Shown: piece after piece, positions 54,486 through 54,621 of the stretch
Layout: every line of letters begins with the position of its first letter
How positions within the stretch are numbered: position 1 is the stretch's first letter
Assembly (NCBI RefSeq): GCF_988242995.1
Contig: NZ_OZ547043.1
Reading direction: 5' to 3' (one strand)
DNA length: 64,000 nt
Program-made: the position numbers and the translations under genes
Notes under the pieces: generated by a model
What the model saw: the letters and a program-made list of their open reading frames with translations, nothing else
What the model was told of the DNA's origin: nothing
Databases searched by the model: none

Positions 54486-54537
54486 TGTTTTTAGTCATCG
54501 TTATTCGACGGTAACAGTGGTTTTCAGCCGTTTTTTT

Positions 54538-54589
54538 TAGTTATATGTTTAGTTATACGGTCTGGCGGGTAGCTAAAACCGTATAACTA
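54538..54589. repeat. TAGTTATA(C/T) repeats (two direct, one inverted) in the att-proximal arm
   Basis: TAGTTATAT 54538-54546, TAGTTATAC 54550-54558, inverted GTATAACTA 54581-54589; a further TAGTTATAC copy at 63265-63273 near the other island end; candidate integrase arm-type sites. Confidence 0.5.
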
Positions 54590-54621
54590 AAATCTGTTTT
54601 TTCCCGTGGATTCAAAAACGT

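Follow-up and report, generated by a model that had tools for sequence, protein, structure and literature searches.

Putative integrase arm-type sites at both ends of a proL genomic island of Escherichia coli and graded loss of the displaced tRNA tail at its right end

In phage P4 (NC_001609), repeats flanking the attachment site are annotated as 'attP arm sequence repeat', with two tandem 12-nt units lying ~83 nt from the core and two tandem units plus one inverted unit at the start of int. The E. coli island described herein, which is inserted at proL, shares this layout, with an equivalent core position; both elements are found at a tRNA 3′ end, with int adjoining the tRNA and encoding an integrase of the same superfamily. 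They differ in arm motif (TTGGGGGCAT in P4 vs TAGTTATAC in the proL island) and in accessory protein, P4 having the excision factor Vis and the island an AlpA-type protein. The cores also differ, as P4 shares 20 bp with leuX, whereas identity in the proL island is confined to 7-8 bp, with replacement of the last 7 nt. CP4-57, found at ssrA in K-12 and carrying IntA and AlpA, likewise has the same layout on both arms and an AlpA-type factor, but its arm motif is TAGGCCCA or TGGGACCA and its target is tmRNA. In CP4-57 and CP4So the attR copy of ssrA lacks the first displaced base (CGCCAGC-CCACCA), and excision damages the RNA gene; CP4So of Shewanella oneidensis, for which AlpA is the demonstrated excisionase, excises to leave ssrA minus one U, this being the same first displaced base (PMC5148205).

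Two further systems are informative. In KplE1 (CPS-53; IntS/TorI, at argW) int comes next after the tRNA and is read in the same direction, as in the proL island, although the integrase is of a different lineage and the arm motif contains TAAA. In KplE1 the int promoter is overlapped by P′ arm sites, int is repressed by its own product, and sites for the RDF overlap attL (PMC2951348). For the GI-pheV islands of E. coli, which have intP4 integrases, the listed attR sequences include TTCGATTCCGAGTCCGG-CACCA, a 1-nt deletion, and imperfection of attR is connected by its authors with the stability of the island (PMC11537424). This deletion would fit the same site, 7 nt short of the tRNA end; the GI-pheV variants are mostly island-side substitutions or loss of attR, with no report of a deletion series anchored at one place. 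Publications on ssrA islands thus already cover imperfect right ends and RNA genes damaged by excision, and pheV islands have been noted in the same connection. For ssrA islands only a 1-nt gap is described, and our literature searches returned no published graded series at proL, no description of graded deletions with a fixed island-side edge, and no account of proL as a target for this island type.

The window analysed, 64,000 nt of contig NZ_OZ547043.1, is an E. coli segment arranged as yejM(lapC)-proL-island-yejO. A single tRNA, Pro(GGG), is predicted by ARAGORN, and K-12 has identical neighbours at proL without an insert. The island measures 8.95 kb; the match to island-free genomes ends 2 bases past the tRNA CCA and restarts at 63356 with GACCAAAAATCCC, followed by the native proL terminator. 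The original prediction allowed that the right boundary had been misplaced, a concern that can be dismissed: no longer repeat of the tRNA end occurs elsewhere, and yejO directly adjoins the terminator as in K-12. At the left end, the final 7 nt of proL (54409-54415, CCGACCA) appear to be supplied by the island, as is the hairpin that replaces the native terminator, a comparable hairpin being retained in related P′ arms despite their differing sequence. The int gene starts 206 nt past the tRNA end on the same strand (Table 1).

Table 1. Features of the attachment region of the proL island, in window coordinates
Feature	Coordinates	Strand	Basis or remark
proL, tRNA-Pro(GGG) gene	54339..54415	+	ARAGORN; K-12 annotation of the locus
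attL copy of identity block CTCTCGTG	54401..54408	+	Sole exact block in common with attR on the island side
Hairpin and T run, island-borne, replacing native proL terminator	54446..54483	+	14-nt perfect inverted repeat
P′1, putative arm-type site TAGTTATAT	54538..54546	+	1 mismatch; direct pair with P′2, 12-bp period as in P4
P′2, putative arm-type site TAGTTATAC	54550..54558	+	Exact match
P′3, putative degenerate arm-type site, GGGTAGCTA on + strand	54567..54575	-	6/9; perfect GTATAACTA at homologous position in RM6927 and IMG/VR relatives
P′4, putative arm-type site, inverted TAGTTATAC	54581..54589	-	Exact match; 33 nt upstream of int ATG
Tyrosine integrase (int), 414 aa	54622..55866	+	Pfam PF13356, PF22022, PF00589; NCBIfam PRK09692
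AlpA-family small helix-turn-helix protein	56130..56321	+	Pfam Phage_AlpA PF05930, 28 bits vs cut-off 21
P1, putative arm-type site TAGTTATAC	63265..63273	+	Exact match
P2, putative arm-type site TGGTTACAC	63277..63285	+	7/9; relatives have TAGTTATAC, TGGTTATAC or TGGATATAC at that place
Putative IHF site AATCAATTTGTTA between arm sites and core	63318..63330	+	Consensus-like; pattern match
attR copy of identity block CTCTCGTG, last island-side base run	63348..63355	+	83 nt from P1 start
Host side of attR: displaced proL tail minus first 2 nt (GACCA), then native terminator	63356..63400	+	Alignment to empty K-12 site

With regard to gene content, the features expected of P4/IntA-family islands are present: int homology, int placed 3′ of a tRNA whose 3′ end is regenerated, a displaced fragment beside the native flank, and an AlpA-type gene, the product of which is, by analogy with CP4So, the likely excision factor. 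Pfam matches among the nine ORFs scanned include Ash, DUF4222, DUF927 (primase-like), SSB, ProQ/FinO and PerC; no homologues of Sid, Psu or Delta were found by Pfam in these nine ORFs, and the island is therefore not a P4-type satellite. As for PICI features, int, alpA-like and primase-like genes are present and terS and a capsid gene are absent, both of the latter being carried by a related proL island in RM6927. A second strain, LH13-b, is 100 % identical at the integrase end (query 54300-55900) and over the right arm (positions 1-146 of a 148-nt query), with its flank diverging a few bases beyond the right arm; its island is annotated with int, an AlpA-like HTH protein, ash, icd-like, DUF4222, DUF927 primase-like, ssb, proQ/finO and perC genes plus two unknowns. 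In the window the ProQ/FinO-family gene (60480-61016) has a stop at codon 57, which is Trp in LH13-b, and a shorter ORF from 60657 still spans the ProQ domain. A 198-aa ORF at the right end (62526-63122) has no Pfam match and corresponds in position to a hypothetical protein of LH13-b. Two inverted sets of iteron-like repeats (GGGACAAGT, TGGGACAGGTG) are located at 59781-59944, directly after the DUF927 primase-like gene, and at 62090-62250, ~2.15 kb away; they resemble the two-site ori/crr annotated in P4 and, by that analogy, may be the replication origin of the island. Immediately 3′ of the int stop codon lies a 46-nt near-perfect palindrome (55882-55927; ATTGGTTCCTAATTGGTTCC / GGTACCAATTAGGAGCCAAT) that could be an operator or a terminator. 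The proL integrase is carried by 438 of 5426 complete E. coli genomes, and a related right arm is present in 361 of the same 5426 (about 7-8 %).

Arm-type repeats of the sequence TAGTTATAC had been proposed at four places in this DNA, and all four copies are present (P′1 with its single mismatch, P′2, P′4 and P1). The fourth had been placed about 75 bp from attR, in good agreement with a measured gap of 74 nt to CTCTCGTG, or 83 nt start to start. Two degenerate copies, P′3 and P2, had been missed, such that two of the six sites in the window are degenerate. The far arm therefore holds two direct sites with a 12-bp period, and the region upstream of int two direct and two inverted sites; a 39-nt direct repeat, 79 % identical, is common to both arms. 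Exact TAGTTATAC matches number three in 64 kb against 0.09 expected (none of 100 shuffles reaches three) and are confined to the two island ends. With one mismatch allowed there are four matches against 6.7 expected, which is not an enrichment, and significance consequently rests on position and conservation rather than on count. The sites are distinct from the core and are found on both arms (four in the int-side arm and two in the far arm), in company with an integrase that has an N-terminal arm-binding domain, as in the heterobivalent att systems of lambda and P4. A full-text literature search for the motif matched only unrelated barcodes and primers, and a search joining arm-type sites with P4-like had no match.

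Related loci provide a more telling comparison. The second proL island, in RM6927, has an integrase ~80 % identical at the nucleotide level and different cargo, and all six of its sites are perfect TAGTTATAC even though the surrounding DNA differs. The arm layout upstream of int recurs in ~40 further loci from Escherichia, Citrobacter, Erwinia, Brenneria, Vibrio, Paraglaciecola and many Pasteurellaceae, beside genes for tRNA-Pro(GGG), tmRNA, tRNA-Ser, tRNA-Met and tRNA-Leu(GAG), down to integrase identities of about 35-45 % and in islands of unrelated cargo; most IMG/VR relatives begin at the int ATG and are uninformative for the int-side arm. Absence of the repeat from related elements had been named beforehand as one finding that would count against arm-type sites, and the opposite is the case. 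The distance from the start of P1 to the CTCTCGTG block is exactly 83 nt in 27 of 27 right ends and in one island-island junction, despite highly divergent intervening sequence. Amongst 44 metagenomic far arms, collected by a pattern keyed on the arm pair alone, it is again 83 nt in the proL, main tmRNA and tRNA-Met groups, and 82-84 nt in three small groups (one tmRNA set, tRNA-Leu and one tRNA-Met locus). An element of the form AAATCA....GTTA, which fits the IHF consensus, is kept within these otherwise divergent P arms. Spacing on the int side is looser, at 124-144 nt, and the offset of P′4 from the direct pair is constant across taxa.

The integrase itself matches PF13356 (Arm-DNA-bind_3) over residues 8-94 with 89 bits against a cut-off of 27, has central and catalytic domains in addition, and scores 557.6 bits against NCBIfam PRK09692 (cut-off 434); it shares 57 % identity with K-12 IntA and 35 % with P4 Int (E 9e-84). 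Changes in the arm motif are accompanied by changes in its N-terminal domain. The proL-site relatives L081-L083 have T(A/G)GGACTAG at the positions held by TAGTTATAC in the window; when scored for L081 and L083, leaving out L082 as a partial match, their integrases are 56 % identical to that of the window over the first 95 residues and 81-83 % over the remainder. L003, which keeps the motif, has an integrase that is 81 % identical in the N-terminal part and 84 % in the remainder, and TAGTTATAC persists with integrases only 35-44 % identical outside the N-domain. The residue two after a conserved KKR is L/I in 22 of 22 members of the TTATAC class and E/D in 8 of 8 of the TAGTA class, these counts not being phylogenetically independent, whilst T is found in the GGACTAG class, K in CP4-57 and D in the TGGTAC class. 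Since motif class tracks both N-domain identity and the post-KKR residue, the N-domain of the integrase is indicated as the reader of the sites.

Taken together, the Arm-DNA-bind_3 domain, the P4 attP layout, the conservation in relatives and the covariation with the N-terminal domain all agree with the original prediction, and the TAGTTATAC repeats are very probably arm-type sites of the island integrase. As judged from sequence, the arm architecture of the proL island is that of P4 and CP4-57, with a new motif.

The position of the P′ sites also bears on expression of int. The island terminator at 54446-54483 closes the tRNA transcript, so that the int promoter must lie among the P′ sites; as these occupy the only space for it, the integrase probably represses its own gene. 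Negative autoregulation through attL has been demonstrated for intS and several other E. coli integrase genes of predicted promoter-overlap arrangements, and the spacers at predicted autoregulated tRNA-then-int loci are about 208-228 nt (PMC2951348), close to the 206 nt seen here. A consensus scan of 54300-54700 for sigma-70 promoters and terminators returned no promoter and also missed the hairpin at 54446-54483; the proposed autoregulation is therefore argued from analogy.

At the right end, attR had been described as an imperfect copy of the tRNA end bearing a 2-nt indel and mismatches. The 2-nt deletion is real (CTCTCGTG--GACCAAAAATCCC vs native CTCTCGTGCCGACCAAAAATCCC in K-12), but the mismatches all lie left of CTCTCGTG and belong to island DNA: attR reads AATTAAACTA-CTCTCGTG-GACCAAAAATCCC, and the native site TCAAATC-CTCTCGTG-CCGACCAAAAATCCC. 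The CTCTCGTG block ends exactly 7 nt ahead of the tRNA 3′ end, and equivalent blocks of only 7-8 nt occupy the same structural position in every target, namely tmRNA (CGCCAGC or CCCCAGC), tRNA-Met (GGTAGGG) and tRNA-Leu (CGCCCAG). All ~70 non-redundant related right ends retain the complete island side as far as the final base of the block. On the host side, 1-20 nt are lost after the block in ~85 % of these, and only ~9 are intact, two of which are the island-island junctions L126 and L162. At proL the losses are 0 nt in two ends (one a tandem junction), 1 nt in six, 2 nt in ten, 3 nt in one, 4 nt in nine, 5 nt in six and at least 6 nt in five (including 10 and 20 nt), with an extra G in two more. 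The last 7 nt on the int side, by comparison, are intact in 29 of 29. Identical far arms occur with different gaps at proL (L141, 0 nt; L137, 2 nt; L140, 4 nt; L151, 20 nt) and also at tmRNA (L162, L210, L161, L160). Similarly, two O111:H8 genomes show two differences in 6122 aligned positions around the junction, one being the loss of 4 vs 5 nt at the same base. In the metagenome contig OLSD01000001.1 (L218, ~390-400), CCCTCGTG stands in place of CTCTCGTG, the first base of the inferred overlap being substituted, together with a 4-nt gap. In L126 (= L041; 3990-4230) and L162 (13910-14150) the order is far arm, block, intact tRNA tail and then int-side arm, which indicates tandem islands at proL and tmRNA, respectively; there, island DNA follows the block without erosion.

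The products of excision are also seen. A search of complete genomes with proL carrying a 4-nt gap as query found three island-free examples (STEC384, O111:H11 8D and NADC1036) in which yejM-proL-yejO is uninterrupted and proL reads CTCTCGTGCCAAAAATCCC. In these loci (L152, L153 and L154, positions 1171-1246) proL lacks 4 nt of its 3′ acceptor strand and is still annotated as tRNA-Pro; given that loss, the three strains are probably without a functional tRNA-Pro(GGG). The presence of this allele in island-free genomes places the crossover inside CTCTCGTG, with excision leaving a broken tRNA gene, and the 7-bp overlap would be TCTCGTG, 54402-54408, around which no inverted symmetry was seen on reading attL and attR by eye. 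These natural scars, along with CP4So excision, imply that the final 7 nt of the functional tRNA come from the island and that it is the displaced host tail that erodes. No scar of 2 nt was found amongst the 5426 genomes, nor any of a size other than 4 nt in the same searches; the window copy may thus excise poorly or not at all.

Several other explanations merit consideration. That the repeats bind another island protein, such as an AlpA-like factor or a repressor, is quite improbable: the location of the sites ahead of int would suit a regulator, and RDF sites overlap attL in KplE1 (PMC2951348), but such a protein would not account for sites on both arms in the P4 arm-repeat layout, for a motif class that tracks the integrase N-domain (the domain-restricted fall in identity in L081 and L083, and the class-specific residue), or for retention of the motif in islands with unrelated cargo. 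Less probable still is that the gap belongs to the attP of the island, with the crossover further right in GACCAAA and excision restoring an intact proL. GACCAAA is indeed an exact 7-bp repeat between attL and attR, and two strains whose flank haplotypes differ carry this island with an identical gap; however, identical P arms are found with gaps of 0, 2, 4 and 20 nt, a shared block to the right is no longer present where the gap is 10 or 20 nt, a 4-nt deletion resides in proL of island-free genomes, and excision of CP4So moves the gap to ssrA (PMC5148205).

More weight attaches to the view that this is an old, immobilised insertion, with the 2-nt gap arising through ordinary decay once the att site was dead, although it too is unlikely. 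The altered host-side half-site at attR, the two degenerate arm sites, the premature stop in the ProQ/FinO gene and the lack of a 2-nt scar in island-free genomes would all suit it. Against this, the int and alpA frames are open in the window, a second strain is identical at the integrase end and right arm with a different flank, and relatives with 1-nt and 4-nt gaps demonstrably excise. Moreover, decay would be expected to affect the two sides of the junction alike, but all the right ends examined retain an undamaged island side at the fixed spacing. The suspicion in the original prediction that an imperfect attR marks an old and possibly immobilised element is not borne out, as such ends are the rule in this integrase family and relatives that have them excise. 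The combined explanation, that of arm sites for a P4/IntA-family integrase, crossover within TCTCGTG and an eroded host tail, is accordingly the one favoured here, and on the comparative sequence evidence is highly probable.

Under this explanation, attP in the excised circle would begin with P1 and P2 as direct repeats, followed by 83 nt containing the IHF-like site and then the overlap TCTCGTG, which would mimic proL 14 to 8 nt before its 3′ end. Beyond the overlap would come the island copy of the last 7 tRNA nt, the terminator and, just ahead of int, a direct pair and an inverted pair of sites. The recombination complex would be assembled through integrase bridges between arm and core sites, strand exchange would occur within TCTCGTG, and integration would leave the working tRNA ending in island DNA, with the original tail of the host at attR. 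Excision by Int and the AlpA-like protein would leave proL 2 nt short in the window, with CTCTCGTGGACCAAAAAT as attB and CTCTCGTGCCGACCAAATCGACC as attP.

As to the cause of erosion, ascertainment bias was considered for the fixed left edge and set aside; the searches were keyed on the arm sites or the whole P arm, and returned no damaged island side. Selection is unlikely to be the sole cause, since it could act just as well on mutations at any point of int, alpA or the arms, whereas those observed fall at a single base position. Selection alone is thus insufficient, and integrase-dependent damage is the leading candidate. It is tentatively suggested that the host half of attR is a hypermutable spot eroded by the integrase, although we would not lean heavily on this. 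One route would be cleavage at the overlap edge with imprecise rejoining, the island side being held and protected in the intasome and the host side trimmed, in a manner that would resemble signal vs coding ends in V(D)J joining; another would be polymerase skipping at a stable Int-DNA complex.

For the proL island family, these comparisons fix the exact ends, the crossover block and the anatomy of attP, and the anchored deletion series marks the likely position of strand exchange without biochemistry. Island callers that seek an accurate tRNA-end copy will place such right ends wrongly or overlook them; for these ends, an arm-site pair, 83 nt and then a 7-8 nt block is a better signature. The motif classes paired with N-domain residues amount to a small natural table of arm-site specificity and, as core specificity has moved among five target genes whilst the arm code stayed fixed, are useful for integrase engineering. 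Whether integrases damage the host half-site, and so make the host dependent on the island, is a testable question. If they do, a ratchet would result. After damage to the tail, an island that excised would leave a broken tRNA or tmRNA gene behind, so that cells cured of it would be penalised and would regain the gene only by acquiring an island again.
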